Below are positions 17,075 through 34,939 of a stretch of DNA of 64,000 bases, in pieces. The stretch covers positions 2,202,662 through 2,266,661 of the forward strand of contig OY759724.1 of NCBI GenBank assembly GCA_963662715.1, read 5' to 3'. Position 1 is the first letter of the stretch, and each line of letters starts with the position of its first letter. The notes below the pieces were generated by a model, which saw only the letters and a program-made list of their open reading frames with translations, was not told the origin of the DNA and searched no databases. This DNA is from Candidatus Omnitrophota bacterium (GTDB lineage Bacteria; Omnitrophota; Gorgyraeia; Zapsychrales; JANLHA01). A program made the position numbers and the translations under genes.

Positions 17075-17935
17075 ATGAACCGCTATATTGATAAATTCAT
17101 ATCCTACCTCAATATTGAAAAGAATTATTCTTCTTACACCATCACAAACTACAGTCTTGATTTAAATGAATTTATGGTCTTCGTGGACAATAAGCCCGTC
17201 GAGCAGATTCAGTATTTGCACCTGAGGAAATTCCTGGCACATCTCAGGGCCAGGCATCTTAAGTCGAGAAGTATTGCCCGAAAACTTTCTTCCATAAGAA
17301 GTTTCTTCCGCTTTTTGCAGAAAGAGGGGCTGATAAAAGAAAACCCGGCAGTGCTTCTCGTTACGCCCAAACTGGAGAAGAGTCTGCCGAAATTTCTCTC
17401 AGAACAGGAGATGGCGGAGTTAATAGAGTCTCCTTCTTTTAACAACCTTTCGGACAAGAGGGATCGGGCTATATTGGAGACGCTTTACAGTTCCGGCTTG
17501 AGGGTTTCCGAGCTCGTCGGGTTAAATACCGGGGATGTGGACTTTATCAGCAGTATCCTGCGGGTCAGGGGGAAAGGAAAAAAGGAACGATTGGTCCCTG
17601 TCGGACAGAAAGCTCTTGATGCACTTAAGCTTTATCTTGATGCCAGAAAAAAAGAGACCCGTGCCGTATTTTTAAACAAAAACCATACCCGGCTTTCGTC
17701 CCGAAGTGTCCGTAATATTATTAACAAACATATTTTGATCACAAGTTTGAGAATGAAAGTTTCTCCGCATGTGTTGCGGCATTCTTTCGCCACTCATTTA
17801 CTCGAGCGGGGAGCTGATTTAAGATCAGTGCAGGAATTGCTGGGACATGTGAACCTTTCGACAACTCAGATCTATACTCACGTGACAACGGAAAGGCTGA
17901 AGAGCGTCTATGACAGGGCTCATCCCCGTGCGTAG
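17075..17935 (+). CDS. Tyrosine site-specific recombinase XerC/XerD
   Basis: N-terminal SAM-like domain (YLNIEKNYSSYTITNYSLDL) and catalytic R...HxxR...Y (RHSFATHLLERGADLRSVQELLGH...IYTH). Start taken at ATG 17075, not the track's 16925 which overlaps topA. Confidence 0.85.
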   Translation: MNRYIDKFISYLNIEKNYSSYTITNYSLDLNEFMVFVDNKPVEQIQYLHLRKFLAHLRARHLKSRSIARKLSSIRSFFRFLQKEGLIKENPAVLLVTPKLEKSLPKFLSEQEMAELIESPSFNNLSDKRDRAILETLYSSGLRVSELVGLNTGDVDFISSILRVRGKGKKERLVPVGQKALDALKLYLDARKKETRAVFLNKNHTRLSSRSVRNIINKHILITSLRMKVSPHVLRHSFATHLLERGADLRSVQELLGHVNLSTTQIYTHVTTERLKSVYDRAHPRA

Positions 17936-17972
17936 CGCAAAACCGTTCGTAACAAGCCGTTTGATATGCCCT

Positions 17973-19229: not shown

Positions 19230-19282
19230 AAATAATATAATTATTGAAACAAATATTATAAAACTATAGTAAAATACACAAG

Positions 19283-20362
19283 ATGTCGTTACGTCATTAT
19301 TATTATTTAATCGTAACAGATCAGGAAGCAGGCCTTTATGCTTTTGTTGTGAAAATATTTTTGCGTCTGGCATCCTTCTTATACGTGTTTTTTGTCCGGA
19401 TGATACTGGGCGCGTATGCTGTCAAACTGCTGCCGGTCCATGATTTGGAGAAGCCGGTTCTCAGTGTCGGAAATATCACCTGGGGTGGAGTCGGTAAAAC
19501 GCCGTTTGTGGAGTGGCTCACAGAATACTTTTTAAGCCGGAACCTTAAACCCGCTATTTTAACGCGGGGGTATATGCCGCAGCGGCGGAGATGGCAGGGC
19601 TGTCCCCCGGAAAGCGATGAAGTGCTTATGCTTCGCAGGCGGTTCCCGCAAGTTCCTGTTGTCATTGGTAAAGATCGTGTGCGAGGCGCGAAAGCCGTTT
19701 TACGGCGAACTCCTGTGGGGATGTTCATCCTGGATGACGGATTCCAGCAATGGGGGATCAGAAAAAAATTGGATATTGTGCTCATAGACGCGACCAACCC
19801 GTTTGGCAACGGATTTTTGTTGCCGCGAGGTCCGCTTCGGGAGCCTTTGTCTTCTTTAAAGAGAGCGGATATTTTTGTTATAACAAAGGCTCACCTGGAA
19901 AGAGGCCGTCTGGATTCGCTGACCAAAAAACTCAACCGGGTCAATCCGCAAGCTCTTGTCGTTGAGAGTGTCCATCAGCCCCGATCCTTGGTTTCTTTGC
20001 TCAGTCAGAGAAAAATGGATTTTTCCCTTATCGCCGGCCAGAATGTCTGTTTGGTCAGCAGCATCGGAGATCCGGCCTCCTTTGAAAGAACGGTGCAGCA
20101 ACAGGGAGCCGTTGTTAAAGAAAGATTTTATTTTATGGACCATGAGTGTTTCCTGCCTTCGGATTTGCAGCGCATAACCGAGGCTTGTCAGCGTCAGGGG
20201 ATCAAACAGGTCATTATCACAGCTAAAGATGCGCCTAAACTGCATCCCGGAGAAGACCCGTTCTTTTCGGATTTGCAGATTCTCATATTAAACATGGTCA
20301 TTCAAATTACTCGAGGAAGAGAGGCCTTTGTTGATAGAGTCAACTCTGTATTACATTGTTAA
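19283..20362 (+). CDS. lpxK: Tetraacyldisaccharide 4'-kinase
   Basis: VGNITWGGVGKTPFVEWL P-loop characteristic of LpxK. Confidence 0.85.
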   Translation: MSLRHYYYLIVTDQEAGLYAFVVKIFLRLASFLYVFFVRMILGAYAVKLLPVHDLEKPVLSVGNITWGGVGKTPFVEWLTEYFLSRNLKPAILTRGYMPQRRRWQGCPPESDEVLMLRRRFPQVPVVIGKDRVRGAKAVLRRTPVGMFILDDGFQQWGIRKKLDIVLIDATNPFGNGFLLPRGPLREPLSSLKRADIFVITKAHLERGRLDSLTKKLNRVNPQALVVESVHQPRSLVSLLSQRKMDFSLIAGQNVCLVSSIGDPASFERTVQQQGAVVKERFYFMDHECFLPSDLQRITEACQRQGIKQVIITAKDAPKLHPGEDPFFSDLQILILNMVIQITRGREAFVDRVNSVLHC

Positions 20363-22295
20363 AATTTGTGGAGCCGTTATCCGGATGCTGCCGGTTGAAT
20401 GGTCATTATTCTTGGGCCGTCTTTTGGGCTGGTTGGCTTATTTATTTGACGTAAAGCATAAAGATCAAGTCCTGCTGAATTTAAAGATTGCTTTCTCCGG
20501 GGAGAAAACGCCTCAGGAAATCCGGTCGATTGCCAAAGCTGTGTTTATGAATTTCGGGCAGCATATGATCGAACTTTTGCGGTTGCCTCGCATGAATGAG
20601 GAAACGTTTAAACGCTATGTAAAGATTGAAGGGCGGGAACATGTCGAGGAGGCTTTGCAGGAAGGCAAAGGCGTCATTCTTTTGGCCATGCATACAGGGA
20701 GCTGGGAACTGGCTAATTTGGCAAGTTCAATGCTAGGCGGGGTCTATAAAGTGATGGTCAATCCCCAGGCAAGATTTTCCCGCCTGGACGAACTGCTTAA
20801 TTCGTACCGTTCCTGCGGCGGATCCGTTGTTTTAGAAAGAGGGGCGGGGACGCGGGAACTGCTTAAGAGCCTTAAAATGAATGAAATTGTCGCTATGGTC
20901 GTGGACCAGGGAGGCAAGAGCGGGCAAAGGGTCCCCTTCTTCAACCGGGAAGCAAGCCTTTCTGTCGGGGCGGTTCGTATTGCACTGAAGTCCGATACTC
21001 CTGTTTGTTTCGCGATTATTCAAAGAGAACGCGGGCCGTATCATCGTCTCACGATTCATAAAAAACTGCATTTTATTAAAACAGGTCATACGCAGAACGA
21101 TATCCGGACGAATCTTCAGCAGATTGCCCGGATTATGGAAGGATATATCAGGTCGAATCCTCTGGAATACATGTGGTTTTACAAAATTTGGAAATATTCC
21201 AATGACTATGAAGCTATTATTCTTAATGATAAGCGGACGGGGCATCTGCGGCAATCCCAGACGGTCGCGCATTTATTGGAATCGCATTTAAAAGAACAAA
21301 GTAAGACGTGTAAAACAAAGATTGTGGATGTCACTTACCGTAACATGGCCCTGGCGAGAGTCCTGATGCTCTGCACTTTTTTTGCGACCAGCCTGCTTCG
21401 TAATTTTAGGGTCGGCCTTTTGCGTTTATGCCTGACCCCGGATTCTTTCCGGGACATCTTCTCTCTGAAGCCCGATTTTATCATCTCCTGCGGGTCAGCC
21501 GCTGCGTATGTCAATTATTTGTTAGCCAAGGAACAGTATGCTAAAAATATCGCTGTATTGAAACCGGGGAGCCTTAATTATCGGCACTATGATTTGAACA
21601 TTTTGCCCGAGCATGACCGGAAGTGGGAGAAGGTTTATGATTCTAACGTGATTTATACCAAAGGAGCTCCGAATCTTATTACGAAAAATTATTTGCAGGA
21701 GAACAGTGAGAAATTGCTGAAGCGCTTTTCGCATCTCAAAATAGGAGACAATTATAAAATTGGCGTTCTTCTGGGCGGAGATACAAAGGATTTTGTCCTG
21801 TCGGCCAGTAAGGTTAAACTGATGTTGCACCAGCTTGTTGAAGCTTCTGAGGAAATGAATGCAGATATTCTGTTCACCACTTCCCGCCGGACATCGGAAA
21901 AAGTGGAAGGTCTTATTTACCGCCATTTGAAACGTTTCCCCCGTTGTCGGCTCTTGATCCTGGCCAACCGCAATAATGTGCCTGAAGCGGTCGGAGGGAT
22001 TCTGGGGCTGTCGGATATCGTTATCGTTTCAGGGGACAGCATTTCTATGATTTCGGAAGCGGCCTGCTCGGGGAAGAAAACGATTGTTTTCCCCGTCCAG
22101 AGCCGGTTTTCTTTAAGGGGAAAGGATTTGAAACACAACCGGTTTATTGATTTGTTAACAGAACAGGGGTATATTCTCTCTTCGGATGTCAAACATATAA
22201 AACAGGCCGTATATAACCTTGTCAAAAATAAAATCCAGCTGCGGATCCTGGATGACAATTCCGTTATCAAGGTCGGATTAAAGCGAATCATATAA
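20328..22295 (+). CDS. Two-domain fusion: N-terminal lipid A late acyltransferase (LpxL/LpxM/HtrB family, ~aa 1-290) plus C-terminal ELM1/DUF1022-like GT-B domain (~aa 300-655)
   Basis: N-terminal half has GKGVILLAMHTGSWELAN and PLEYMWFYKIWK (compare E. coli LpxL HFLTLEL and EQYMWLHRRFK). C-terminal half carries motifs I recall from PF06258: PDFIISCGSAAA, HYDLNILPEHDR, VLLGGDTKDF, LFTTSRRT, VIVSGDSISMISEAACSGK. One uninterrupted 655-codon ORF. Confidence 0.7.
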   Translation: MLIESTLYYIVKICGAVIRMLPVEWSLFLGRLLGWLAYLFDVKHKDQVLLNLKIAFSGEKTPQEIRSIAKAVFMNFGQHMIELLRLPRMNEETFKRYVKIEGREHVEEALQEGKGVILLAMHTGSWELANLASSMLGGVYKVMVNPQARFSRLDELLNSYRSCGGSVVLERGAGTRELLKSLKMNEIVAMVVDQGGKSGQRVPFFNREASLSVGAVRIALKSDTPVCFAIIQRERGPYHRLTIHKKLHFIKTGHTQNDIRTNLQQIARIMEGYIRSNPLEYMWFYKIWKYSNDYEAIILNDKRTGHLRQSQTVAHLLESHLKEQSKTCKTKIVDVTYRNMALARVLMLCTFFATSLLRNFRVGLLRLCLTPDSFRDIFSLKPDFIISCGSAAAYVNYLLAKEQYAKNIAVLKPGSLNYRHYDLNILPEHDRKWEKVYDSNVIYTKGAPNLITKNYLQENSEKLLKRFSHLKIGDNYKIGVLLGGDTKDFVLSASKVKLMLHQLVEASEEMNADILFTTSRRTSEKVEGLIYRHLKRFPRCRLLILANRNNVPEAVGGILGLSDIVIVSGDSISMISEAACSGKKTIVFPVQSRFSLRGKDLKHNRFIDLLTEQGYILSSDVKHIKQAVYNLVKNKIQLRILDDNSVIKVGLKRII

Positions 22296-22323: not shown

Positions 22324-24432
22324 ATGAAATTGCGGATTTTACAGGTTTTGCCGGAATTGAATGTGGGGGGTGTGGAAACCGGAACCATTGATCTGGCCAA
22401 ATATTTAAAAGAACATGGCCATACCCCGGTTGTCGTGTCAAATGGCGGAAGCCTTGTCCATGAGCTCGAGGACATGGGCATTGTTCATTATACGTTACCC
22501 GTCCATAAGAAATCATTTCTTACAGTTTTAAAATCCATAAAATTGCTGCGGGAGATCATCCGGGAGGAAAAGATTGATGTCGTTCATGCCCGATCTCGTA
22601 TCCCCGGATGGATTGCCTTCTTTGCCTGCCGGGGGACCGAGGCCGAGTTTATAACCACCTGTCACGGCTATTATTCAACCCATCTGCTGAGCCGGGTCAT
22701 GGGGTGGGGGAAGCTCGTTATTGTCCCCAGTGAAGTCATCGGCCGGCATATGATAGAAGATTTCTCCGTCCCGGCTGATCATATCCGGTGTGTGCCCCGA
22801 AGCGTTGATCTGGGCCGGTTCAACGTGTCGCAGGAACCTCCCAAAGCCAAGACGACTTTTACGATCTCGATTGTCGGCCGTTTGACTCCGCTGAAAGGGC
22901 ATGTTTATTTTCTGAAAGCCATGGCGAAGGTTGTGCGCATTATGCCTTATGTGAAAATCTGGATTATCGGAGAGGCTCCTGCGCATAAAGAAAACTACCG
23001 GATGGAATTAGAAGCTTTGACGCGCCGTTTGGGACTGACAGATGTCGTTGAATTCCTGGGGAACCGCAAAGATGTTCCGCAGCTTTTGTCCCAGACGGAT
23101 GTGTTGGTGCTGGCGTCCACGGTCCCGGAAGCTTTTGGCCGGGTTATCATTGAGGCCCAGGCGATGAGCGTTCCTGTTGTCGCCACGAAAGTCGGCGGTG
23201 TCGTTGAAATTATCGATCATGAAAAGACCGGCCTGCTGGTTTTGCCGAAAGACCCCGAGGCGATGGCCCAGGCTGTTATCCGTTTGTTGCAGGACCGCCG
23301 CTTTGCTCAGGAAATGACAAGGCAGGCGAAGAAAAAACTGATGGGGAAATACACTCTTGAACATATGGCCAAAAAGACGCTGGCTGTTTATAAGGAACTC
23401 CTGAAATCCTTAAACATTTTGGTTATTAAACTGAGTTCCGTCGGGGATGTCATCCTGGTGACGGCTTCGCTCAAGGCGATCCGGCAAAGATTCCCTCGTG
23501 CGAAAATTGTGTGTTTGATTGGGGAAGAGTCCCGGGAAATTTTGCAGAGGTGTCCCTATATTGATGAACTGATGATTATTGATGTCAAGAATCCCAAGGG
23601 AAGACTCTGGCGTATCTTGAAATACGGAAGGAAATTGGCGCGGTATAAATTTGACAAAGTGATTGATTTTCAAAACAATCGTATGAGTCACCTCCTGTGT
23701 TTTTTGGGATTTTCCAGAGAAAGTTATGGTTACCGGAATCATAAGTGGGGGTTCTTTTTAAGCCGCCCGGTGATGCCGCCCGACCATCATATGCCGCCCG
23801 TTCCGCATCAATTTCAGATCTTGAAAGCGCTGGAGATAGATTATCATGAAGACATGCGGCTGGAATTATGGCCTTCTGAAAGGGATCATAAAAATGTTGA
23901 AGATTTATTCGAATCAGAATGGCTGGGGGGGCAACATTCTGTCGTGGGGCTTCACCTGTCGGCATCCCCACGATGGGGGACGAAGAACTGGCCCGTGGCT
24001 TATGCCGCGAAGCTTTGTGATTTATTGGCAGCAAGAAATATACGGGTTGTTATCACGGGCGCCGAGAAAGATGCCGGGTTGGGCCAGCAGCTTATGGCTT
24101 TGGCAAAGTCTAAGCCGGCAAACTTAATCGGTAAAACGAATATTTTGGAGCTGGCTGTTTTGATTTCCAAATGCAAGGTTTTTATCGCTCCTGATACGGC
24201 CCCCATGCACATCGCGGCCGCGATGAAAACCCCTTTTATCGTCTTCTTCGGCCCGACATCGGCCTTCCGCCATTTGCCCCCGGCAGACTCCTATGTCGTT
24301 TTTCAGAAAAAGTTGCCGTGCGTTCCTTGTTACAGCTCGTCTTGCCGGATTAAAACCCATGCGTGTATGACTGAAATCACCCCGGAGGAGGTTGCCGTGC
24401 AAGTCTCCCGCTTGTTGAAAGAGACATCATGA
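22324..24432 (+). CDS. Two-domain fusion: GT4 glycosyltransferase (aa ~1-365) plus GT9 ADP-heptose:LPS heptosyltransferase (aa ~370-702)
   Basis: N-terminal half has the GT4 Glycos_transf_1 core (EAFGRVIIEAQAMSVPVVATKVGG). C-terminal half starts ILVIKLSSVGDVILVTASLKAIRQRFP and ends with the GT9 motif FIAPDTAPMHIAAAMKTPFIVFFGPT. Confidence 0.75.
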   Translation: MKLRILQVLPELNVGGVETGTIDLAKYLKEHGHTPVVVSNGGSLVHELEDMGIVHYTLPVHKKSFLTVLKSIKLLREIIREEKIDVVHARSRIPGWIAFFACRGTEAEFITTCHGYYSTHLLSRVMGWGKLVIVPSEVIGRHMIEDFSVPADHIRCVPRSVDLGRFNVSQEPPKAKTTFTISIVGRLTPLKGHVYFLKAMAKVVRIMPYVKIWIIGEAPAHKENYRMELEALTRRLGLTDVVEFLGNRKDVPQLLSQTDVLVLASTVPEAFGRVIIEAQAMSVPVVATKVGGVVEIIDHEKTGLLVLPKDPEAMAQAVIRLLQDRRFAQEMTRQAKKKLMGKYTLEHMAKKTLAVYKELLKSLNILVIKLSSVGDVILVTASLKAIRQRFPRAKIVCLIGEESREILQRCPYIDELMIIDVKNPKGRLWRILKYGRKLARYKFDKVIDFQNNRMSHLLCFLGFSRESYGYRNHKWGFFLSRPVMPPDHHMPPVPHQFQILKALEIDYHEDMRLELWPSERDHKNVEDLFESEWLGGQHSVVGLHLSASPRWGTKNWPVAYAAKLCDLLAARNIRVVITGAEKDAGLGQQLMALAKSKPANLIGKTNILELAVLISKCKVFIAPDTAPMHIAAAMKTPFIVFFGPTSAFRHLPPADSYVVFQKKLPCVPCYSSSCRIKTHACMTEITPEEVAVQVSRLLKETS

Positions 24433-25529
24433 AAATCCTTTTTTTGACGACTCATTTGAACGTGGGCGGTATCACCTCCTATCTCTGGACATTAAGCCGC
24501 GGTCTGATATCATCGGGACATTCCGTCTATATCGCTTCCTCCGGGGGCAACAGGCAGGATGATTTCATGTCCTTAGGGGTTCGTCTTTATCCTGTCAATA
24601 TCCGGACAAAATCGGAACTTGACATCCGCATTTATTGGGCCACCTATCGTCTGCGTTCTTTCATCAGGGAAGAAGGTATTCAGCTCGTTCACGCTCAGAC
24701 ACGGGTGACTCAAGTGATGGGTGATTTGCTCAAGAGAATAACGGGGACGGCTTTTTGTTCGACCTGCCACGGATTTTTTAAACCCAGATGGTCAAGAAAA
24801 GTTTTCCCGTGCTGGGGCGATTCCGTTGTCGCAATTAGTCCGGCTGTCGAGGAACATCTGCGAAACGATTTTCGCATTGAACCCAGCCGGATTGTTTTGA
24901 TAAGGCATGGCCTTGATCTGGCGTCTTTCTCCTTGAAGTCCCCGGAGGAAAAACAGAAGATGAAAGCGAGATTCCATATCCAGCAAGGGCCGGTGCTGGG
25001 GATTATTGCCAGGTTGTCGGATGTCAAAGGACATTCTGTCCTGCTCGATGCCATGCCCGACGTGCTGTCCCGGTTTCCCGGAGTGCGGCTTGTCATCGTC
25101 GGGGAAGGTCCTATGGAGGCTTGCTTAAAAGAAAAGGTTTTGTCCTTGGGGATAAAAGAGCATGTGATTTTTTTCCCTGTTGTCAATCAGACTTCGGACA
25201 TGTTGTCTCTGTTGGACGTTTTCGTGCTGCCTTCTCTCCAGGAAGGACTGGGGTTGTCTGTCATGGAGGCCCAGGCTGCCGGCCTGCCTGTTGTGGTCTC
25301 CCGTGTCGGCGGTCTTCCCAGCCTTGTTCAAGACAGGGAAACTGGACGTTTGTTTGAGCCCCGGAACAGCCGGCAGCTGGCGGAGGTTCTCCTTGATGTT
25401 TTGACGCACCCTCAGGAAGCGGCTGCTATGGGGCGGCGGGCAAGGGCGTTTATTGAACGGGAATTCTCGGCTGAGAAAATGGTGCAGGAAACCGTCCTCA
25501 TGTGCCAGCGCCTCATAAAGAGTTCTTAG
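24429..25529 (+). CDS. GT4 family glycosyltransferase (paralog of the N-domain of the preceding gene)
   Basis: MKILFLTTHLNVGGITSY..., EGLGLSVMEAQAAGLPVVVSRVGG. Confidence 0.8.
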   Translation: MKILFLTTHLNVGGITSYLWTLSRGLISSGHSVYIASSGGNRQDDFMSLGVRLYPVNIRTKSELDIRIYWATYRLRSFIREEGIQLVHAQTRVTQVMGDLLKRITGTAFCSTCHGFFKPRWSRKVFPCWGDSVVAISPAVEEHLRNDFRIEPSRIVLIRHGLDLASFSLKSPEEKQKMKARFHIQQGPVLGIIARLSDVKGHSVLLDAMPDVLSRFPGVRLVIVGEGPMEACLKEKVLSLGIKEHVIFFPVVNQTSDMLSLLDVFVLPSLQEGLGLSVMEAQAAGLPVVVSRVGGLPSLVQDRETGRLFEPRNSRQLAEVLLDVLTHPQEAAAMGRRARAFIEREFSAEKMVQETVLMCQRLIKSS

Positions 25530-25562
25530 AAATTTATCGCGCAATAACAGTGATTTGTTCTG

Positions 25563-26603
25563 TTGAACAATAAGGGAATCATGAAACGAATTCTTGTTGT
25601 TAATGTCAATTGGGTCGGAGACGTGGTTTTTTCAACACCGGTTTTTAAAGCGATCAGAGCCAATTGGCCGGAGGCCTTTATTGCCTGTATGGCCGTTCCC
25701 CGGGTAAAAGAGATATTGGAAAGCTGTCCTGATATCCATGAGATTATTGAATATGATGAACGGGGCCGGCATCAGGGACTTTGGGGAAAGATCCAGCTCG
25801 TTTCAACGTTGAGACGTCATCATTTTGATGCCGCGTTCCTTCTTCATAGATCCTGGACCCGGGCCTTTCTTGTTTATTTGGCGGGCATAAGGGAACGCGT
25901 GGGTTATGACACGAAAAAGCGGGGGAAGTTCCTGACGCACAAAATTCCTCTCCCTCAGGAGTTGTCTCACCGTTCTGATTTTTACCTTAATGTGATCAAA
26001 CACTACGGCTTGAAAGTGGAAGACCGCACGTGCGAATTAAGCGTCGACAGGCAGGCCCAAAAGCAAATGGATGACATGTTGTCCCGCCATAACATCTCGC
26101 AGACGGACACTGTCATTATTGTCAACGTTGGCGGGAACTGGGATCTTAAGAAATGGCCGCTTGACCATTTCTCAGAGCTTTTATCCCGCCTGACGCAGGA
26201 ATGTCCTGTGAAAATCGTCATTCCCGGGGCAGCCAAAGATCTTGAGGTTGCCCGGGAGATCAGCCGCAAAGCCGGTGTTCAGCCTGTTGTTCTTGCGGGG
26301 CAGACGAATCTCAAGCAATTAATAGCTTTGATGAAAAGAGCCTTCCTGGTCATCTCGGCGGATTCCGGGCCTATGCACATTGCCAGTTCCGTGGGAACGA
26401 ATGGTATCGCTCTTTTTGGCCCGACCCGGCCGGAATTAACCGGTCCGAGAGGGAAGGGGGTCTTCCATGTGTTACAAAAAGATGTGGGGTGTAACCGGCA
26501 GGCCTGTTATTTCCTGCAATGCCCGGATAACGTGTGTATGCAGTCTGTGACCGTGGATGACGTTATGAGGGCTGTCCGGCCATTACTGGAAAAAGCTCAA
26601 TGA
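25563..26603 (+). CDS. GT9 heptosyltransferase (WaaC/WaaF/WaaQ family)
   Basis: ILVVNVNWVGDVVFSTPVFKAIR, and the C-terminal VISADSGPMHIASSVGTNGIALFGPT motif. Likely true start at the MKRILVV ATG 25581. Confidence 0.8.
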   Translation: MNNKGIMKRILVVNVNWVGDVVFSTPVFKAIRANWPEAFIACMAVPRVKEILESCPDIHEIIEYDERGRHQGLWGKIQLVSTLRRHHFDAAFLLHRSWTRAFLVYLAGIRERVGYDTKKRGKFLTHKIPLPQELSHRSDFYLNVIKHYGLKVEDRTCELSVDRQAQKQMDDMLSRHNISQTDTVIIVNVGGNWDLKKWPLDHFSELLSRLTQECPVKIVIPGAAKDLEVAREISRKAGVQPVVLAGQTNLKQLIALMKRAFLVISADSGPMHIASSVGTNGIALFGPTRPELTGPRGKGVFHVLQKDVGCNRQACYFLQCPDNVCMQSVTVDDVMRAVRPLLEKAQ

Positions 26604-26742
26604 AAAAGCGGCGCCCTGATGAGGGGGCGCGGATGCGGGACAGAAACAGAAAAATTTTAAGCCGATAACTTTGATGGATTTATTTTTAAATCGTATTAAA
26701 ATAGGGAAGAAGAATATTCTTTCATGATATCCTGTGGCCTGA

Positions 26743-27762
26743 TTGCTTGGGACCGTCTTGATGAAAATAAGCAAACCCAAAATTAAAAAGATTCTAGTTA
26801 TCACACTGAGCAATATCGGTGATGTGATACTGACTTTCCCGGTCATTGACATCCTCAAGAGGGATTTCCCTAAAGCCAATTTGTCGGTGGTTGTCGGGCC
26901 TAAAGCGGAGAATTTGCTGAGCCGTAACCCCTATATCGATCAGATTATCGTTTTTCAAAAGAAACAACCTTTTTTAAGAATGATCTCCTGGATTTTTTTG
27001 TTGCGCAGGAAGAATTATGACTTGGTCGTGGACTTGCGCAATACGATGATTCCTTTTCTCGTTTCGACCAAATATCTTACTTCGCCTTTTTTGAAAAGAC
27101 AGCCGCATCGGCACATGCGCCAGCAGCATCTGTTGAGATTGAAATCGCTGTACTCTTATAAGACCGTATCTCAGGAACGTTTTGCCCTGCATATACAGAC
27201 AAATACCCGTTTGGCAACCACGAATATGATATGCAATGAAATCGGTGACCGGAAGAAATACATTGTTGTCGCTCCTGGCGCGGCAGACAGCAATAAGCGG
27301 TGGAGTGAGGAAAACTTTGCCAAACTCGCTGACGAACTCATCCGGAAGCATGAAGTTCAAATAGCCTTTGTGGGCGACAAAAATGACCGTCCGGTCGCTG
27401 ACGCCATCTGCCATCTCATGTCTCACCGGGCTGTGAACTTTTGTGGCCGCATAGATTTAATCCAATTGGCCGTCCTGTTGGAAAGAAGCTGCTTGGCTAT
27501 CGTCAATGACAGTGCCCCTATGCATTTGGCTTCTTATCTTAATGTCCCGACGCTTGCCCTTTTCGGCCCAACAGATCCTCTGAAATACGGCCCTTGGTCT
27601 GAACAGAGCTGTGTCATTGAACGGAAAAAATCCTGTCCTGCTTGTCAAGGAAAGCCCGGCGTTAAGAGACACACATGCTTAAGCCAAATTAAGGTTGAAG
27701 ACGCTCTCAACGCCTTTGAGTTGACCCCTGACGGCGTCCTTTTCCGTAATTCACAGCCGTAA
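26743..27762 (+). CDS. GT9 heptosyltransferase
   Basis: ILVITLSNIGDVILTFPVIDILK, IVNDSAPMHLASYLNVPTLALFGPT. Confidence 0.8.
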   Translation: MLGTVLMKISKPKIKKILVITLSNIGDVILTFPVIDILKRDFPKANLSVVVGPKAENLLSRNPYIDQIIVFQKKQPFLRMISWIFLLRRKNYDLVVDLRNTMIPFLVSTKYLTSPFLKRQPHRHMRQQHLLRLKSLYSYKTVSQERFALHIQTNTRLATTNMICNEIGDRKKYIVVAPGAADSNKRWSEENFAKLADELIRKHEVQIAFVGDKNDRPVADAICHLMSHRAVNFCGRIDLIQLAVLLERSCLAIVNDSAPMHLASYLNVPTLALFGPTDPLKYGPWSEQSCVIERKKSCPACQGKPGVKRHTCLSQIKVEDALNAFELTPDGVLFRNSQP

Positions 27763-27774
27763 CTTAATTTTCTG

Positions 27775-28833
27775 TTGAACTCATCCCGCAAACACGCAAT
27801 GTATCGTAACATTCTTGTCATTAGAACGGATAGACTCGGAGACGTTGTTTTAACAACACCGGCCTTACGTGCCCTGAGGAAAAAATTCCCGGAGGCCCGA
27901 ATCACTCTTCTTTTAGCTCCTTTAACGAAGGAGCTTGTGGAAGGTAATCCGTATATTGACCAGATACTGATAGATGACCGTCGTTGCACCCATAAAGGAT
28001 GGCTTGGTTATATAAAACTTGTGAATCGTTTAAGACAAGAACATTTTGATCTGGTGATTAATTATCATACCAAGAAAAGGACAAACCTTTTATGCTGGTT
28101 TGCCGGTATTCCTGTCCGGATAGGATACAGAAATGATAAGTTTGGTTTTTTGTTGAATAAGCCTGTCCCTGACCGGCGCCCGGCAGGAGAAAAGCACGAA
28201 GCCCGGTATTGCCTGGATGTTTTAAAAGTTCTGGGTATTTCCGGGGAGGCCCTGGAGCTGTATGTCGCCACAAAAGATGATAATGATAAATGGGCCGAGG
28301 ATTGGTTAAAGAGCAGACAACTCCCGATTGAGGGGAAAATCGTGGCGGTTCATCCAGGGTCAAGCTGTCCCACAAAACAATGGCCGGTGGAGAGGTTTGT
28401 TGAGCTTATCCGCATTTTGAGATCGCGCTATCAGACAGAGATTGTTTTAGTGGGCGGGGCGGATGGCCGGAAGGCGGCTGCCCAAATTCAGAATGAGGTT
28501 CAGGGGCCTCTTTTCAGCTTGGTAGGGGAGACGAGTGTCGGGCAATTAACCAGTCTTTTAAAGAAATGTGCTCTTTTGATATCCAATGATTCCGGCCCGG
28601 TTCATATAGCTGCGGCTCTGGGAACGCCTGTTGTTTCTATTTTTACCAGGAATCAGCCGGGCATTAACCCCGAACGCTGGTGTCCTCTGGGACCGAAAAG
28701 CCGATATGTGGCTCCGCCTGTGGATATGAGTCTGTCCTTTGCCCAGGGAACGATTGATCATCCGGATTTCCTGTATAAAATGACCGTTAAGGACGTTTTG
28801 CTGGCAGTTGACGCTTTATATAAACTATGTTAG
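27775..28833 (+). CDS. GT9 heptosyltransferase (WaaF-like)
   Basis: ILVIRTDRLGDVVLTTPALRALRKKFP, ISNDSGPVHIAAALGTPVVSIF. Likely start at MYRNILVI 27799. Confidence 0.8.
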   Translation: MNSSRKHAMYRNILVIRTDRLGDVVLTTPALRALRKKFPEARITLLLAPLTKELVEGNPYIDQILIDDRRCTHKGWLGYIKLVNRLRQEHFDLVINYHTKKRTNLLCWFAGIPVRIGYRNDKFGFLLNKPVPDRRPAGEKHEARYCLDVLKVLGISGEALELYVATKDDNDKWAEDWLKSRQLPIEGKIVAVHPGSSCPTKQWPVERFVELIRILRSRYQTEIVLVGGADGRKAAAQIQNEVQGPLFSLVGETSVGQLTSLLKKCALLISNDSGPVHIAAALGTPVVSIFTRNQPGINPERWCPLGPKSRYVAPPVDMSLSFAQGTIDHPDFLYKMTVKDVLLAVDALYKLC

Positions 28834-28890: not shown

Positions 28891-29925
28891 ATGAATCCCT
28901 ATAAAAAGCTAATAAAACAGTTTAAAAAGAAGAGAATCCTGGTTATCGGGGATGTTATCCTTGATCAGCATATTCAAGGCGTTGTGTCCAGGATATCCCC
29001 GGAGGCTCCGGTTCCGGTTGTGCTCCAAAAGCAGGACCCGACCTTTTCTCCCGGAGGTGCGGCGAATGTCGCGAACAATTTAAGAGTTCTGGGAGCAAAA
29101 GTTTTACTGGTCGGCCGGGTAGGAAAGGACCAGGAAGGGAAAATTCTGCAGACATGCTTAAAAGAAAGCGGGCTTTCAACACTGGGCGTGTTTGTGGACC
29201 GCTTTTCGCCGACCATCGTTAAAACCAGGATTATCGCCCAGCACCAGCAGGTCTTGCGGCTTGACCGGGAAAAGGTTGCCCCTTCGGAAGACAAGAAATT
29301 TTATCCCAAAGTGCTGAGTTTTTTAAAAAGAAATATTCACCGCTTTGACGCTGTCATTATCTCTGATTACGGGAAGGGGATGATCACCCGCAACCTTGTT
29401 GAGGAAAGCTGCGCCCTTGCTTTAGAAAACAATAAAATCCTGACAGTCGATCCCAAGGTGGAACATTTTGCCTATTATTCAGGAGTGACGGCCATAACCC
29501 CCAACCGCAGCGAAGCGGAAAATGCGATTCGTAATATTAAAATCACACATAACGGCAAACGAAAACTTGCTTTAACCAGCGACCGGTTAGAGACCATCGC
29601 GGATGTGGAAAAGGCCGGGAAGCAGCTGTTGAGATTTATGAATTTGTCATCTTTGTTGATTACCTTGGGAGAATACGGGTTGATGCTTTTCGAAAAAGGG
29701 AAGAAACCGGTCCGGATCCCGACCAAAGCCCAGGACGTTTTTGATGTGACCGGGGCCGGGGATACGGTGATTTCCGTTTTTACTTTGGGCCTGACGACCG
29801 GGGCGACAATGTTTCAGGCGGCGGATTTGGCCAATTATGCGGCGGGCATTGTTGTCGGGAAAATGGGCGCTGTTTCAGTGACCCCGAAGGAACTGCTAGA
29901 TGTGACGCAGCGTCCCGGGGCATAA
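28891..29925 (+). CDS. D-glycero-beta-D-manno-heptose-7-phosphate kinase (HldA / RfaE domain I only, PfkB family)
   Basis: ILVIGDVILDQHIQG...ISPEAPVPVV and the PfkB C-terminal DVTGAGDT motif. 344 aa, so no adenylyltransferase domain II. Confidence 0.8.
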   Translation: MNPYKKLIKQFKKKRILVIGDVILDQHIQGVVSRISPEAPVPVVLQKQDPTFSPGGAANVANNLRVLGAKVLLVGRVGKDQEGKILQTCLKESGLSTLGVFVDRFSPTIVKTRIIAQHQQVLRLDREKVAPSEDKKFYPKVLSFLKRNIHRFDAVIISDYGKGMITRNLVEESCALALENNKILTVDPKVEHFAYYSGVTAITPNRSEAENAIRNIKITHNGKRKLALTSDRLETIADVEKAGKQLLRFMNLSSLLITLGEYGLMLFEKGKKPVRIPTKAQDVFDVTGAGDTVISVFTLGLTTGATMFQAADLANYAAGIVVGKMGAVSVTPKELLDVTQRPGA

Positions 29926-29958: not shown

Positions 29959-30699
29959 ATGAAGATCATCGGAGTGATTCCGGCCCGTTACGGATCGACA
30001 AGAATGCCGGCGAAAGTCCTGGCGCTGATCCAGGGGCGTCCCATGATTGAGCACGTTTACCGGCAGGCGAAAAAATGCCGGCTTTTGGATGAAGTTTTTA
30101 TTGCCTGTGATGACCAGCGGGTTATGGACGCGGCCCTTGGTTTCGGGGCCCGAGCCGTTATGACCTCCCCGGACCACGCTTCCGGGACAGACAGGATCGC
30201 CGAAGCCTCGGCGAACATTCCGGCGGAGATCATCATCAATATCCAGGGGGATGAACCTCTTGTCCATCCTGATATGATTGACGCCCTGGCCCGGGGTATA
30301 AAAGAAGATGATGGTTGTTTTATGGCCACGGTTGCCAGGCGCATCACGGATGAGGAGGATGTCGGTAATCCCAATGTTGTTAAAGTTGTTTTGAATCAAA
30401 GAGGAGACGCTTTGTATTTTTCCCGTTCGGCGATCCCGTTTAACAGGGATAATGCGGATGTGTCGCAATTGAGCTATTATAAACATTTCGGGATTTATGC
30501 TTACCGTAAATCCTTTTTGCTGTCATTAAAAGATTTTCCCCCTTCGCTCCTGGAGCAGACGGAGAAGCTGGAACAGCTTCGTGTCCTGGAAGCAGGGTAT
30601 GATATTAAAGTGCTTATCACCGAGCATGACACGATCAGCGTGGACACCAGGGAAGACCTGACCCGTGTCGAATTTTTTCTCGGCGCAAGGAAAGTATAG
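29959..30699 (+). CDS. kdsB: 3-deoxy-manno-octulosonate cytidylyltransferase (CMP-Kdo synthetase)
   Basis: IIGVIPARYGSTRMPAKVL...NIQGDEPL. Confidence 0.9.
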   Translation: MKIIGVIPARYGSTRMPAKVLALIQGRPMIEHVYRQAKKCRLLDEVFIACDDQRVMDAALGFGARAVMTSPDHASGTDRIAEASANIPAEIIINIQGDEPLVHPDMIDALARGIKEDDGCFMATVARRITDEEDVGNPNVVKVVLNQRGDALYFSRSAIPFNRDNADVSQLSYYKHFGIYAYRKSFLLSLKDFPPSLLEQTEKLEQLRVLEAGYDIKVLITEHDTISVDTREDLTRVEFFLGARKV

Positions 30700-30793
30700 C
30701 GATTGTTTGTTATCCTGACGCCGGGGGATTTTTGTTTTTTGGGGTGAATTTAAGCAGGAGGCTCCTGTCTTTTTCGGAAAGGATGCAAAGCCG

Positions 30794-31648
30794 ATGACAA
30801 TGATTAAATTGCAAGACATGAAAATCGGGGGCGGACACCCGTTCGTTCTCATCGCCGGCCCCTGTGTTATTGAGAATGAAAAGACAGTTTTCCTGATCGC
30901 CGAAACCCTGAAAGATATTACGGGCCGTTTGAAAATCCCTTTCATTTTTAAAGCGAGTTATGATAAAGCCAACCGGACGTCCATTCAGTCGTTTCGGGGC
31001 CCGGGCATTAAAAAGGGGTTGAAAATCCTTGCGAAGATTAAAAAGACACTGCAGGTCCCGGTGACGAGTGACGTTCATTGTGTCGCGGACGTTGACCAGG
31101 CGGCAGAAGTGCTGGACATCATCCAGATCCCGGCGTTCCTTTGCCGGCAGACAGATCTATTGGTCAAGGCCGCCAGGACAAAAAAGATTATTAACGTTAA
31201 AAAGGGCCAGTTTTTGGCGCCTTGGGACATGAAATCTGTTGCTGAAAAAATACAGCAGAGCGGGAATACAAGAATTATCCTGACAGACCGGGGGTGTTCG
31301 TTCGGCTACAATAATCTTGTGAGTGATTTTCGGTCTCTGGCCGTCATGCGTGGTTTGGGGTATCCGGTCTGTTTTGATGCTTCGCACAGCGTTCAGCAGC
31401 CCGGCGGTTTAGGGACGGCTTCCGGAGGCAAACGGGAGTTTATCCCTCTCTTGGCCCGTTGCGGTGCTGCCGCCGGGTGTGATGCGATATTCATGGAAGT
31501 GCATTCTCGTCCTCAAGACGCTTTGTCTGACGGTCCTAATATGCTGCCCTTAAAGGACCTGGAGGGCCTTTTCGTTGACCTTGTGGCCATTGATACGGTC
31601 GTTAAAAGGGAGCACGGGGCCCTGCGGAAATCCGGGAAAACAAAATAA
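30794..31648 (+). CDS. kdsA: 2-dehydro-3-deoxyphosphooctonate aldolase (Kdo-8-P synthase)
   Basis: FVLIAGPCVIENE...KASYDKANRTS...DVHCV, DAHP/KDO8P synthase family. Confidence 0.9.
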   Translation: MTMIKLQDMKIGGGHPFVLIAGPCVIENEKTVFLIAETLKDITGRLKIPFIFKASYDKANRTSIQSFRGPGIKKGLKILAKIKKTLQVPVTSDVHCVADVDQAAEVLDIIQIPAFLCRQTDLLVKAARTKKIINVKKGQFLAPWDMKSVAEKIQQSGNTRIILTDRGCSFGYNNLVSDFRSLAVMRGLGYPVCFDASHSVQQPGGLGTASGGKREFIPLLARCGAAAGCDAIFMEVHSRPQDALSDGPNMLPLKDLEGLFVDLVAIDTVVKREHGALRKSGKTK

Positions 31649-32607
31649 TGTCTATCAGTAAAGCCAAAGAAGTCATTGATATTGAAGCCGCTGCCGTTAA
31701 GGGGTTGAAAAAGCATCTGGATCATAATTTTACGGATGCCGTTGACTTAATGATCTCTTGTGAAGGGCGGGTGATCGTTACCGGGATGGGCAAGACAGGA
31801 ATTGTCGGCCGGAAGATTGCCGCCACCCTGTCTTCAACCGGGACTCCGAGCATTTTTATGCATAGCGCTGAGGCCGTTCATGGGGACCTGGGGCAGGTAA
31901 CAAGGTCTGATGTCCTTATGGTTATTTCCAACAGCGGAGAGACGGAAGAAACCACCCGTCTGCTTCCGCTGGTAAAGAAGATTGGAGCGAAGACCATTGC
32001 TTTGACGGCTAACCCGCATTCCAACCTGGCCAAACACAGTGATGTGATTTTAAACATCGCGGTCGAACAGGAGGGGTGTCCTCTGGGGCTGGCCCCGATG
32101 GCCTCAACGACAGCGACCCTCGTTATGGGCGATGCGTTGGCGGCCTGTCTTATTGTGCGCCGGGGATTTAAGAAAGAGGATTTCGCTTTTTATCATCCCG
32201 GCGGGGCTCTGGGGCGGAGGTTGTTGCTAAAGGTTGAAGATATCATGAGAAAGGAAGGGTTTTTCCCCCGGGTAGAAGAAGACATGTTTGTCAAGGATGT
32301 GCTTTTTGCGATTACACGCTCCAGATGCGGCTCCGCTATCGTGGTCAACCCCAAAGGGGTTTTGGTCGGCATTTTCACCGACGGGGATCTAAGGCGCCAC
32401 CTGGAAGAGGACCGTGACCTGCTGAAACGCAAGGTGGAAGAAGTTATGACGAGGAATCCGACTACGATACGTTCAGACAAGCTCGCCGTGGAAGCCTTTA
32501 CCTTGTTGCAGGACAGGAAGGTCGATGAGCTGCCGGTTGTCAACCCGAAAGGCCAGGCCGTGGGATTGCTGGATATTCAGGATTTATTAAGAGCGGGTTT
32601 GTTTTAA
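31648..32607 (+). CDS. kdsD: Arabinose-5-phosphate isomerase (SIS + tandem CBS)
   Basis: SIS domain GRVIVTGMGKTGIVGRKIAATLSSTGTPS plus C-terminal CBS pair. Confidence 0.85.
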   Translation: MSISKAKEVIDIEAAAVKGLKKHLDHNFTDAVDLMISCEGRVIVTGMGKTGIVGRKIAATLSSTGTPSIFMHSAEAVHGDLGQVTRSDVLMVISNSGETEETTRLLPLVKKIGAKTIALTANPHSNLAKHSDVILNIAVEQEGCPLGLAPMASTTATLVMGDALAACLIVRRGFKKEDFAFYHPGGALGRRLLLKVEDIMRKEGFFPRVEEDMFVKDVLFAITRSRCGSAIVVNPKGVLVGIFTDGDLRRHLEEDRDLLKRKVEEVMTRNPTTIRSDKLAVEAFTLLQDRKVDELPVVNPKGQAVGLLDIQDLLRAGLF

Positions 32608-32630
32608 CGAGAATTCCTTAAGGATAAAAA

Positions 32631-33143
32631 ATGAATGACAAAATGGAACGCATAAAAGTTTTGGCTTTGGATGTGGATGGCGTTTTGACCGACGGCCGTA
32701 TTGTTTATAATTCCCTTGGTCATGAAATTAAATCTTTCGATGTCCAGGACGGCTATGGAATTATCCTTTGGCGCCGGTTAGGGCTGAAAACCGCTATCCT
32801 TTCCGCCCGTTCGGCCAAGCCGGTTGATATCCGGGCGCAGGATTTAAAAATTGACAGGATTTATCAGAATGCTTATCCCAAGATAGACACCTACGAAACC
32901 CTGCTGGCCGATTTTGAGGTGGGCGATGAAAATGTCTGTTTTATCGGAGATGATCTGCCTGATCTGGCCGTGCTCAAACGGGCCGGGTTTTCTGTGGCCG
33001 TGGCCAATGCGAATCAGGAGATTAAGACTGTTGTTGATCATGTGACGGAGAAACCCGGCGGGCGCGGGGCTGTCCGGGAAGTTATTGAAATGATTCTTAA
33101 ACACCAGGGGCGATGGCAAGATGTCATTCATATGCACGAATAA
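32631..33143 (+). CDS. kdsC: Kdo-8-phosphate phosphatase (HAD family)
   Basis: IKVLALDVDGVLTDGRI...GDDLPDL. Confidence 0.85.
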   Translation: MNDKMERIKVLALDVDGVLTDGRIVYNSLGHEIKSFDVQDGYGIILWRRLGLKTAILSARSAKPVDIRAQDLKIDRIYQNAYPKIDTYETLLADFEVGDENVCFIGDDLPDLAVLKRAGFSVAVANANQEIKTVVDHVTEKPGGRGAVREVIEMILKHQGRWQDVIHMHE

Positions 33144-33993
33144 TTTGAAATATTGGCAGCGGATCGTCAACGTGTCGGTTGTCTCCGCGGTTCTGCTGTT
33201 GGCCGGTCCGGGTTTGGCCCAGGGGGTCGGACAGCAATTTGAGGGGTTTAACCTTCAGGGCTTCGAGGATGACGGCCGAAAGAAGTGGGATCTTCGCGGA
33301 GATACGGCCAACATTTTTGGGGAACAGATTGAGATCACGAATGTTGATGCCAATCATTACGGGGCTCAACCGATGAACCTCAAAGCCCGTACCGGAACCA
33401 TCGATAAGGCCAGCGGAGATATTCAGCTGAAAGAGAATGTTGTCATTACGTCTGAACAAGGCGCTCGGATGACTACGGAGTCATTGGATTGGTATAAAGA
33501 AAAGGATCTTATCGAAACGAGCGACCGGGTCGTGCTGTCGGACCAGCGTTTAACTGCAACAGGAACAGGGCTGCGCGCCAGCCCGGGACTCATGGTGGCC
33601 CAGATGAATGAAGATGTCACCATCAAGGTTAAACCGGCTCCGGAGAAGGATGACCAGCCGCCGGTCACGATTACCTGTGACGGGCCTCTGGAAATTGACC
33701 AGAAAAAGAATAAGGCTATTTTAAAAGATAACGTGGTCGCCGTTCAGGGGGAAAGGATCCTCAAGGCCGATGAAATCCAGGTCTATTTCGATCCCGAAAC
33801 CCAGCAGGTTAAGAAAATGATCTGCGCGGGAAATGTGGAAATTATTCAGGGAGCCAACAAGACGTATTCGCAGAGGGCCGTCTATGAGGCGGACAGCCAG
33901 AAGCTTGTTTTGACCGGAAGTCCCAAAATCACCCTGATCACATCCGGCGAAGGGAGTGTCGAGTCGTTGATGAAGGATGAAAAGTCAGATTAG
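33121..33993 (+). CDS. LptC/LptA-family protein with two tandem OstA-like beta-jellyroll regions (possible LptC-LptA fusion or double-jellyroll LptA)
   Basis: N-terminal hydrophobic segment ending GLAQG, an LptC-like region (aa ~40-150), then a clear LptA/OstA_N signature (ITCDGPLEIDQKKNKAILKDNVVAVQGERILKADEIQVY...AGNVEIIQG...AVYEADSQKLVLTGSPKI). It is the only gene between kdsC and lptB. Confidence 0.65.
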   Translation: MSFICTNNLKYWQRIVNVSVVSAVLLLAGPGLAQGVGQQFEGFNLQGFEDDGRKKWDLRGDTANIFGEQIEITNVDANHYGAQPMNLKARTGTIDKASGDIQLKENVVITSEQGARMTTESLDWYKEKDLIETSDRVVLSDQRLTATGTGLRASPGLMVAQMNEDVTIKVKPAPEKDDQPPVTITCDGPLEIDQKKNKAILKDNVVAVQGERILKADEIQVYFDPETQQVKKMICAGNVEIIQGANKTYSQRAVYEADSQKLVLTGSPKITLITSGEGSVESLMKDEKSD

Positions 33994-34077
33994 GTAAGGG
34001 TTTAGGACAAAAGGGGCTCCGGACAGGTTTTGGGGGAAATAAATACTGAAATTCCTTTTCATTTATTAAAATTGTAC

Positions 34078-34083
34078 TATAAT
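34078..34083 (+). promoter_or_regulatory. Candidate -10 hexamer (TATAAT) in the 218-bp gap upstream of lptB
   Basis: Perfect TATAAT in an AT-rich intergenic region ~130 nt upstream of lptB. I found no convincing -35 at canonical spacing. Confidence 0.2.
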
Positions 34084-34210
34084 TGTTAGATATTTTTCAG
34101 CGGTCTCTGAAAAGGATGTGTCGCAAGGCAGCGGAAAAAACGGATGGGCCTTAAGAGGGTTGAACCGTTTCAATTGTCATTCTAGCGGTTGATTCATGTG
34201 AGATAATATT

Positions 34211-34939
34211 ATGAGCTTACATTTGCTAGAAACAAAGGGGTTAGTTAAGACCTACGGTGGCCGGAGAGTTGTCGACGGGTTAAGTATTACTGTCGGCCGT
34301 TCGGAAATTGTCGGGATCCTGGGGCCGAATGGCGCGGGCAAAACAACCTCTTTTTACATGATCGTAGGTATTATTGCCCCGGACCTGGGGCAGATATTTT
34401 TTGATCAGGTGGACATAACCAAAAAACCCATTCATGACAGATGCCGGCTCGGCATGGGATATTTAGCGCAGGAAAATTCCATTTTCCGCAAACTGACCGT
34501 CCGTGAGAATATTATGTCCATTCTGGAAACTCTCGATATCAGTCCGAGAGAGAGGCGTCGCCGTCTCAATGCTTTGTTGGAGGAATTAAATATCGCGCAT
34601 TTGGCCAAAAGCAAAGCGTATACGTTGAGCGGCGGGGAACGCCGGCGGTTGGAAATCACCCGGGCCTTGGTCACGAATCCGTCTTTTCTTCTGCTGGACG
34701 AACCCTTTTCCGGTATAGATCCGATTGTTGTGGCTGAAGCTCAGGAAATCATTAAGGATTTGAAGAATCGGGGGATCGGGATTCTGCTGACGGATCATAA
34801 TGTGCGGGAAACCCTTTCCATCACCGACCGGGCTTATCTCGTGGCGGAGGGCAATGTCCTGATTTCAGGAACGACGAAGGATTTGATTAATGATCCGAAA
34901 GCGAAGCAGATATATTTGGGTGAAAAGTTCAGTATGTAG
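34211..34939 (+). CDS. lptB: LPS export ABC transporter ATP-binding protein
   Basis: Walker A GPNGAGKTT, signature LSGGERRRLEI, Walker B LLLDEP. 242 aa. Position matches the kdsC-lptC-lptA-lptB order. Confidence 0.9.
   Translation: MSLHLLETKGLVKTYGGRRVVDGLSITVGRSEIVGILGPNGAGKTTSFYMIVGIIAPDLGQIFFDQVDITKKPIHDRCRLGMGYLAQENSIFRKLTVRENIMSILETLDISPRERRRRLNALLEELNIAHLAKSKAYTLSGGERRRLEITRALVTNPSFLLLDEPFSGIDPIVVAEAQEIIKDLKNRGIGILLTDHNVRETLSITDRAYLVAEGNVLISGTTKDLINDPKAKQIYLGEKFSM

Follow-up and report, generated by a model that had tools for sequence, protein, structure and literature searches.

Can two glycosyltransferases of different families work from one polypeptide and, if so, what would they make? 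The question is raised by positions 22324-28833 of a 64,000 nucleotide (nt) stretch of DNA from a Candidatus Omnitrophota bacterium (GenBank assembly GCA_963662715.1, contig OY759724.1, positions 2,202,662 to 2,266,661 of the forward strand), hereafter called the window. The region contains five co-directional open reading frames (ORFs) on the + strand, with the same coordinates as in a preliminary description made from the sequence. The first ORF encodes a 702 amino acid (aa) protein with a glycosyltransferase family 4 (GT4) module followed by a family 9 (GT9) module. The Omnitrophota are abundant, uncultured and often ultra-small bacteria. Here we argue that the protein is probably a bifunctional cytoplasmic transferase of the lipopolysaccharide (LPS) core, with both modules active on a core anchored to 3-deoxy-D-manno-oct-2-ulosonic acid (Kdo)-lipid A. 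This explanation appears the most likely because the catalytic residues of both modules are invariant.

Results

The 702-residue ORF holds complete GT4 and GT9 modules

The preliminary description held that the ORF joins a complete GT4 domain to a complete GT9 domain. Alignments to Pfam and NCBIfam models agree, since they cover both modules. The features of the ORF are as follows.

22324..24432, + strand: fusion ORF, GT4 and GT9 in one 702-aa polypeptide (ORF with Pfam/NCBIfam domain matches)
22324..23409, + strand: GT4 module, aa 1-362, retaining GT-B type (PF13439 and PF00534)
23128-23154, + strand: EX7E motif, E269...E277, of the fused GT4
23410..24429, + strand: GT9 module, aa 363-702 (PF01075, 9.3e-34; TIGR02195, 131.6 bits with a cut-off of 134.6)
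23446-23448, + strand: residue D375 of the fused GT9, aligned with Asp13 of WaaC

Within the protein, Glyco_transf_4 (PF13439) matches aa 14-165 (6.7e-27; 95 bits, cut-off 28.5) and Glycos_transf_1 (PF00534) matches aa 169-337 (4e-40; 137.6 bits, cut-off 26.4). Glyco_transf_9 (PF01075) matches aa 432-677 with 117.3 bits (gathering score 22), and the NCBIfam model for heptosyltransferase II aligns over its entire length with aa 364-698. At the junction, the sequence is ...AVYKELLKS|LNILVIKLSSVGDV. The GT4 alignments stop at aa 360-362, which leaves 0-2 linker residues. The last GT4 helix passes directly into the first GT9 beta-strand and the fusion is essentially linkerless.

The fusion is a hallmark of the Omnitrophota

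A junction entirely without a linker would suit an artefact, in which adjacent GT4 and GT9 genes were joined in this assembly by a lost stop codon or by a frameshift. So would one metagenome-assembled genome (MAG) in which a standalone gene of the fused GT9 type begins exactly at the junction position. There, the GT4 module is absent and the next gene is the second GT4 gene of the region (GT4b, below). We searched a database of 5.8 billion proteins and examined the best 120 matches. All but two of these (118/120) are 680-770 aa long, carry both domain sets and are 59-77% identical to the window protein; where named, they derive from Candidatus Omnitrophota MAGs. The aligned homologues contain no indels across residues 350-375, junction included. 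A scan of species-representative genomes returned at least 585 matching stretches. In the best 80 loci the matches span residues ~3-699, and the labels are Omnitrophota or the placeholder 'uncultured Planctomycetales'. One uninterrupted ORF of more than 650 aa covers both modules in 81/81 examined loci. Approximately 43 further full-length fusion clusters, with 27-48% identity, are present among 50%-identity representatives. A full-length fusion is also found in Ca. Theseobacter exili (phylum Ca. Auribacterota, PVC group), at 39% identity and with operon synteny kept in part.

The same continuous ORF, with its indel-free junction, therefore recurs in 118 independent protein clusters and in every one of the independently assembled loci. 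It is present in lineages down to 27% identity and in another phylum. The chance that the fusion is an assembly artefact is vanishingly small, and this comparative evidence rules out a frameshift at 23390-23420. Such evidence for the junction outweighs read-level inspection of one genome. Thus, the fusion proposed in the preliminary description is real and conceals neither a stop nor a frameshift; it is a lineage hallmark of the Omnitrophota, neither a one-off nor an assembly error. The accompanying statement that fused transferases are uncommon holds by comparison with model organisms only. In the Omnitrophota they are the rule, and databases have already named them automatically as 'lipopolysaccharide heptosyltransferase II', 'GT4 family glycosyltransferase PelF' or 'ADP-heptose:LPS heptosyltransferase/glycosyltransferase'. 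The names 'heptosyltransferase II' and 'PelF' each cover one half of the fusion at best. We suggest that the fusion would have arisen once, in a common ancestor of Omnitrophota and Auribacterota, and been inherited vertically since.

Catalytic residues are conserved in both modules

An EX7E motif in the C-terminal domain marks retaining GT4 enzymes. The fused GT4 carries E269-AFGRVII-E277, and both glutamates are invariant in 27 aligned homologues. In the fused GT9, residues D375, K554 and D624 align with Asp13, Lys192 and Asp261 of Escherichia coli HepI/WaaC and are invariant in the fusion family. Asp261, like Lys192, is a donor-binding residue. In E. coli HepI, Asp13 is the catalytic base and Lys192 is a phosphate ligand (bioRxiv 10.1101/2021.06.16.448588). 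The intact residues agree with the assignment to GT4 and GT9 made at the outset.

It could be argued that catalysis rests with one module alone, the other having degenerated into a domain for scaffolding or membrane targeting. The most divergent clade does have a weak GT9 half (29.9 bits with Pfam for P0207, and 152 bits on the group hidden Markov model (HMM) described below). Against this, neither module shows any substitution at its catalytic residues in the window protein or in its 118 close homologues, each half gives a strong match to its family, and both are more conserved than the standalone transferases. We therefore consider a single active module improbable.

An AlphaFold2 model of the 702-aa protein has a mean predicted local distance difference test score (pLDDT) of 88.2 and a predicted template modelling score (pTM) of 0.84. 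Such a high pTM for a four-lobed protein hints that the modules may have a defined arrangement in the model. The GT4 half superposes on 7MI0, 4XSU and 2JJM, a set that includes HepE and BshA, with a target template modelling (TM) score of 0.84-0.87; hence, it has a GT-B fold. The GT9 half superposes on 3TOV and on WaaF (1PSW). In a fold search of the PDB, no chain spanned both modules and the best query TM score was 0.47.

The neighbouring transferases belong to ancient orthologous groups

The remaining four ORFs of the region are listed below.

24429..25529, + strand: standalone GT4, 'GT4b', 366 aa, EX7E intact (GT4 match 1.3e-40)
25563..26603, + strand: GT9a (GT9 match 7.6e-39; TIGR02195, 168.7 bits)
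26743..27762, + strand: GT9b (GT9 match 1e-32; lowest conservation among the GT9s, median identity 42%)
27775..28833, + strand: GT9c (GT9 match 3.8e-37; best group HMM for E. coli WaaQ, 151 bits)

The start of GT4b overlaps the end of the fusion by 4 nt (ATGA). GT4b scores 78 (PF13439) and 139.2 (PF00534) bits, both above the gathering cut-offs and covering both Rossmann halves, and its EX7E motif reads E-GLGLSVM-E. With PF01075, GT9a, GT9b and GT9c score 133.9, 113.9 and 128.4 bits, respectively. These matches confirm the order first described, GT4b and then three GT9 genes, and the total of four GT9 and two GT4 domains within 6.5 kb, which is far above chance. The listed starts of GT9a, GT9b and GT9c are the most upstream TTG codons. 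The true starts are probably ATG codons a few codons further in, because the HMM alignments begin only at residue 9-16.

The preliminary description also called GT4b closely related to the fused GT4 and spoke of a GT9 expansion. We compared the transferases using group HMMs, built from syntenic orthologues, and a neighbour-joining (NJ) tree; the references were E. coli enzymes only. The fused GT4 and GT4b are 30% identical; a Rickettsia enzyme (35%) is a closer relative of the fused GT4 than this neighbour is. The four GT9 domains share 25-32% identity among themselves. Each group HMM recognises its own member with 458-633 bits and members of other groups with 152-278 bits; for the two GT4 groups, own-group scores are 633 and 530 bits and cross-scores 278 and 211. 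The NJ tree resolves the GT9s into four monophyletic groups, and the genomic position of each is constant throughout the phylum.

Same-family genes that lie side by side could be young, lineage-specific tandem duplicates, with the GT4 pair and the four GT9s diversifying an outer, variable glycan. The low identity of the paralogues speaks against this. So does the monophyly and position-specificity of each group across 80 species, and so does the location, among core housekeeping genes and free of any sign of mobility. Recent duplication is thus highly improbable. On these comparisons, the GT4 pair and the four GT9s are ancient orthologous groups, a fixed set inherited phylum-wide. Neither the close kinship of the two GT4s nor a local amplification of the GT9s was upheld.

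Equivalents of Asp13, Lys192 and Asp261 are kept in all four GT9 groups (13 sequences each), with Lys replaced by R in 3/13 GT9c sequences. The fused GT9 also contains a Cys4 motif, C666-x2-C669-x4-C674-x6-C681 (nt 24319-24366). It is invariant in the fused GT9 and GT9a, partly kept in GT9b and present in 8/13 GT9c orthologues, the GT9c of the window not among them. The motif is absent from E. coli WaaC, WaaF, WaaQ and WaaU. It may be a structural zinc site; the pLDDT of the model is low here (59-65).

The transferase block is tightly packed. The sole sizeable gap is the 139 nt between GT9a and GT9b (26604-26742), which contains a G+C-rich hairpin and T-run on the minus strand (26630-26611). 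In a relative of Ca. Aceula lacicola (locus L001), the GT9a and GT9b genes overlap and there is no such gap. A promoter and terminator scan of the interval 16.5-35.5 kb gave signals not above shuffled expectation.

The fusion sits in a conserved lipid A-core operon

The genes on either side, identified with Pfam and NCBIfam models, are as follows.

17910-19229, + strand: WaaA (Kdo transferase)
19283-20362, + strand: LpxK
20328..22295, + strand: LpxL-type lipid A late acyltransferase fused to an Elm1/PF06258 domain (PF03279, aa 7-289; PF06258, aa 305-620)
28891..29925, + strand: HldA-type D-glycero-beta-D-manno-heptose-7-phosphate kinase, RfaE domain I only (TIGR02198, 354.5 bits, cut-off 345)
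29959..34939, + strand: KdsB, KdsA, KdsD, KdsC, an LptC/LptA fusion and LptB

The full gene order is XerC-like recombinase, WaaA, LpxK, LpxL/Elm1, the GT4-GT9 fusion, GT4b, GT9a, GT9b, GT9c, HldA, KdsB, KdsA, KdsD, KdsC, LptC/LptA and LptB. WaaA and LpxK make Kdo-lipid A, the presumed acceptor, and the HldA kinase indicates a supply of nucleotide-heptose donor. Hence the LPS inner-core setting first proposed fits the neighbours well: a heptose-7-phosphate kinase adjoins the transferases, and WaaA, LpxK, LpxL, Kds and Lpt genes surround them.

For synteny, each genomic interval of the 81 loci was assigned to the best-scoring window protein. The order from XerC to KdsB is nearly invariant in these loci. 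A divergent clade, whose fusions have no more than 27-33% identity, shows it too. A GT4b orthologue occupies the same position in 76 loci, and the HldA kinase is syntenic in most. The rest of the 64-kb window consists of housekeeping genes. Since gene order is kept across loci, and the surroundings are housekeeping genes, the transferase block is core genome and not an island.

A different product, such as a capsule, a Pel-like exopolysaccharide or a protein-linked heptan, would make the lipid A and Kdo neighbours coincidental. Some database orthologues are indeed named 'GT4 family glycosyltransferase PelF', and the fusion scores 105 bits with the PelF model NF038011, narrowly above its low cut-off of 100. 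Furthermore, GT9-like enzymes can heptosylate proteins, as is reported for TibC (PMC4358343). The PelF alignment covers only model positions 278-488 of 489, so the name rests on the generic, nucleotide-binding C-terminal half, and the genomic context contradicts it. We reject the PelF identity because the model match is partial and because lipid A, Kdo and Lpt genes, with no pel genes among them, surround the fusion. The transferases lie between WaaA-LpxK-LpxL and HldA-KdsB-KdsA-KdsD-KdsC-LptC/A-LptB, in an order kept phylum-wide, and standalone GT4s of the fused type occur in lipid A operons of other phyla (see below). These observations make a non-LPS glycan quite improbable, and we retain the LPS core as the likely product.

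Several further observations concern the operon and its surroundings. The LpxL/Elm1 gene is a second conserved fusion and adjoins the GT4-GT9 fusion in nearly all related loci. A sequence search of the PDB gave no relative for its Elm1-like half; bacterial PF06258 proteins are annotated as putative glycosyltransferases (GtrOC1-like). A 290-aa ORF at 33121-33993 (+ strand) combines LptC (aa 40-166) with LptA/LptD_N (aa 190-278), and is thus an apparent LptC-LptA fusion, ahead of LptB. In locus L001 an insertion (16224-21220), not found in the window, separates GT9c from HldA and encodes a PilZ protein, a response regulator, an unknown ORF and two tandem serpin genes. All Pfam-assigned ORFs of window positions 1-64000 are on the + strand, and GC skew is positive in 32/32 two-kb bins; the window is an unusually long, uninterrupted co-directional housekeeping stretch. 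Two ORFs, at 39505-40308 (267 aa) and 51609-52235 (208 aa), have no Pfam match. The latter is flanked by NusA and IF-2. Several long ORFs overlap there on the two strands and AT skew reaches its maximum (0.167, bin 50-52 kb), which suggests a compositionally biased or repetitive segment.

Heptosyltransferase models and conservation suggest inner-core steps

We scored the GT9 domains with the NCBIfam heptosyltransferase models. With TIGR02195 (heptosyltransferase II, cut-off 134.6), GT9a passes at 168.7 bits, and the fused GT9 (131.6), GT9b (124.5) and GT9c (128.3) fall below. NCBI nevertheless calls many fused orthologues 'heptosyltransferase II'. None of the four window domains passes TIGR02193 (heptosyltransferase I/WaaC, cut-off 185.3; scores 78.6, 84.3, 87.2 and 95.3) or TIGR02201 (heptosyltransferase III/WaaQ, cut-off 170.2; scores 103.3, 134.7, 127.3 and 114.1). 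In the reciprocal comparison, the GT9a group HMM is the best match for E. coli WaaF (154 bits), the GT9c and GT9b group HMMs are the best for WaaQ, and WaaC is weak on all four (50-62 bits). A one-to-one matching of the four GT9s to WaaC, WaaF and WaaQ was rejected: neither the NJ tree nor the HMM cross-scores yield it, and only a resemblance of GT9a to WaaF has some support.

Median identity to the window protein over the 81 loci is 60% for the fused GT4 and 51% for the fused GT9. The corresponding value is 47% for GT4b, GT9a and GT9c, and 42% for GT9b. The fused modules are thus the two most conserved transferases of the operon, which fits the innermost, least variable steps.

Standalone relatives, further fusions and fissions

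Standalone GT4s of the fused type score 368-448 bits on the fused-GT4 HMM and 226-258 on the GT4b HMM. In Leptospirillia such a gene follows LpxB-MsbA-WaaA-LpxK. In Ratteibacteria it lies between GT9 genes near LpxK (LpxK-GT9-...-GT4-GT9). An origin of the fusion from this Ratteibacteria gene pair was considered and rejected: the downstream GT9 is not of the fused type and scores best on GT9b (136 bits). Among the loci of standalone relatives examined, we found no direct precursor arrangement. A further standalone GT4 of this type (440 bits; CP070780.1, locus L084, 6725-9089) is encoded in a 1.43-Mb Omnitrophota genome, immediately after a GlgC-like NTP_transferase and away from any lipid A genes. 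This neighbour may be a hint to the donor sugar, or the GT4 may have a different use in a reduced genome. In the same locus (15075-16652) an intein splits the gene for GTP cyclohydrolase I; the domains of this intein are Hint, intein-splicing and, faintly, LAGLIDADG. Taken together, the GT9 model scores, the conservation ranking and the contexts of standalone relatives point to the fused-type GT4 as an LPS-core GT4 family able to work without a WaaC-type partner.

Further fusions were found among related proteins. A divergent sister clade encodes GT9b and GT9c as one protein (670-677 aa; L085 13004-15037 and L091 14024-16036) and has an additional gene, for a polysaccharide deacetylase, between GT4b and GT9a (L087 11238-12047). 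Metagenome relatives include a GT4-GT9-GT9 protein (P0163, 1081 aa), a GT9-GT9 protein (P0247, 685 aa), GT4-GT4 fusions (P0154, P0169 and P0181; 738-773 aa) and larger proteins of 1100-1400 aa with three GT4-type modules and a deacetylase. Reverse-order GT9-GT4 fusions, suspected from C-terminal GT4 matches, proved to be GT4-GT4 when inspected with Pfam. Recurrent fusion of neighbours argues for close cooperation of these enzymes. Since fission also occurs, as in the MAG with a standalone fused-type GT9, each module is an autonomous unit.

Discussion

Comparison with characterised systems

The GT9 modules resemble E. coli WaaF (1PSW), WaaC and WaaQ in their PF01075 match, GT-B fold and equivalents of Asp13, Lys192 and Asp261, and in their placement in an inner-core operon with an adjoining heptose-activation gene. 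They differ in several respects. The window GT9s are only 21-28% identical to the E. coli enzymes and cluster together instead of pairing with them one-to-one. In addition, one is covalently fused to a GT4, and most carry the Cys4 motif.

The closest solved relative of the fused GT4, over the full module length, is a glycosyltransferase of Rickettsia africae (7MI0). The similarity is extensive (phmmer 1.2e-64; 34-35% identity with BLASTP and Foldseek; Foldseek TM 0.85), and 7MI0 scores 282 bits on the fused-GT4 HMM as against 186 on the GT4b HMM. Unlike the fusion, 7MI0 is a standalone protein of 398 aa, without a GT9 module; it is a structural-genomics entry. E. coli WaaG is the textbook analogue for the order GT9-then-GT4: this GT4 is glucosyltransferase I, which acts on heptose II after the GT9 heptosyltransferases. 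Its sequence similarity is weak (BLASTP 47-62 bits, with ~31% identity in a partial alignment; group HMMs 50-77 bits).

Rhizobium LpcC adds mannose directly to Kdo. LpcC and Brucella WadC are thus functional analogues, likened by function and not by sequence, for a GT4 that replaces a WaaC-type first step. Both are GT4 core mannosyltransferases and a precedent in the inner LPS core (PMC3349745). HldE, a kinase/adenylyltransferase fusion, and the GT4-GT4 proteins likewise join enzymes of one pathway, in other module combinations; the HldA of this genome is unfused. Our literature search found no paper on a GT4-GT9 fusion, Omnitrophota LPS or the function of 7MI0, and no characterised GT4-GT9 protein.

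A model for the fused transferase

We propose that the N-terminal module would act as a retaining GT4 with some nucleoside diphosphate (NDP)-hexose as donor, and the C-terminal module as an inverting GT9, most likely with ADP-heptose. Both would act on the same growing core, anchored to Kdo-lipid A at the inner membrane face, before GT4b and GT9a, GT9b and GT9c extend it. Here, donors, acceptors and the order of steps are what we infer. With low confidence, we prefer an order in which the innermost core steps would fall to the fusion; its GT4 module would attach a sugar straight to Kdo, in the manner of LpcC and WadC, or act on the first heptose. Judged from sequence, the chances that the two modules catalyse consecutive steps are about evenly balanced. 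Direct action of the GT4 module on Kdo is more doubtful, and a heptose-rich core is plausible.

Several points weigh against the proposed role. The fused GT9 lies just below the heptosyltransferase II cut-off, and family GT9 also holds non-heptose transferases. Conservation rank bears only indirectly on step order, and a gene for a WaaC-type enzyme could lie beyond the 64-kb window. Neither donor nor acceptor specificity can be read from sequence. Finally, some genomes have the modules apart, which means that the two need not be physically coupled.

The recurrent neighbour fusions (LpxL-Elm1, GT4-GT9, GT9b-GT9c and GT4-GT9-GT9) suggest a broader idea, which on balance we think unlikely: the Omnitrophota core would be built by a physically coupled GT-B assembly line, in which the fused GT4, and not a WaaC-type enzyme, glycosylates Kdo first and hands the product to the attached GT9. 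If true, this would mean inner-core chemistry and substrate channelling unlike the enterobacterial Kdo-Hep-Hep paradigm.

The modules, the operon and the pathway logic are all of known kinds, and no principle is overturned. It is the covalent GT4-GT9 architecture, and its phylum-wide fixation, that depart from characterised systems. The fusion provides a Rosetta-stone link between two families of core glycosyltransferase and a sequence marker for the lineage. It is also small enough to serve as a target for expression and for reconstitution of a non-proteobacterial LPS core pathway, and offers a way into the envelope biochemistry of a phylum without cultured members.

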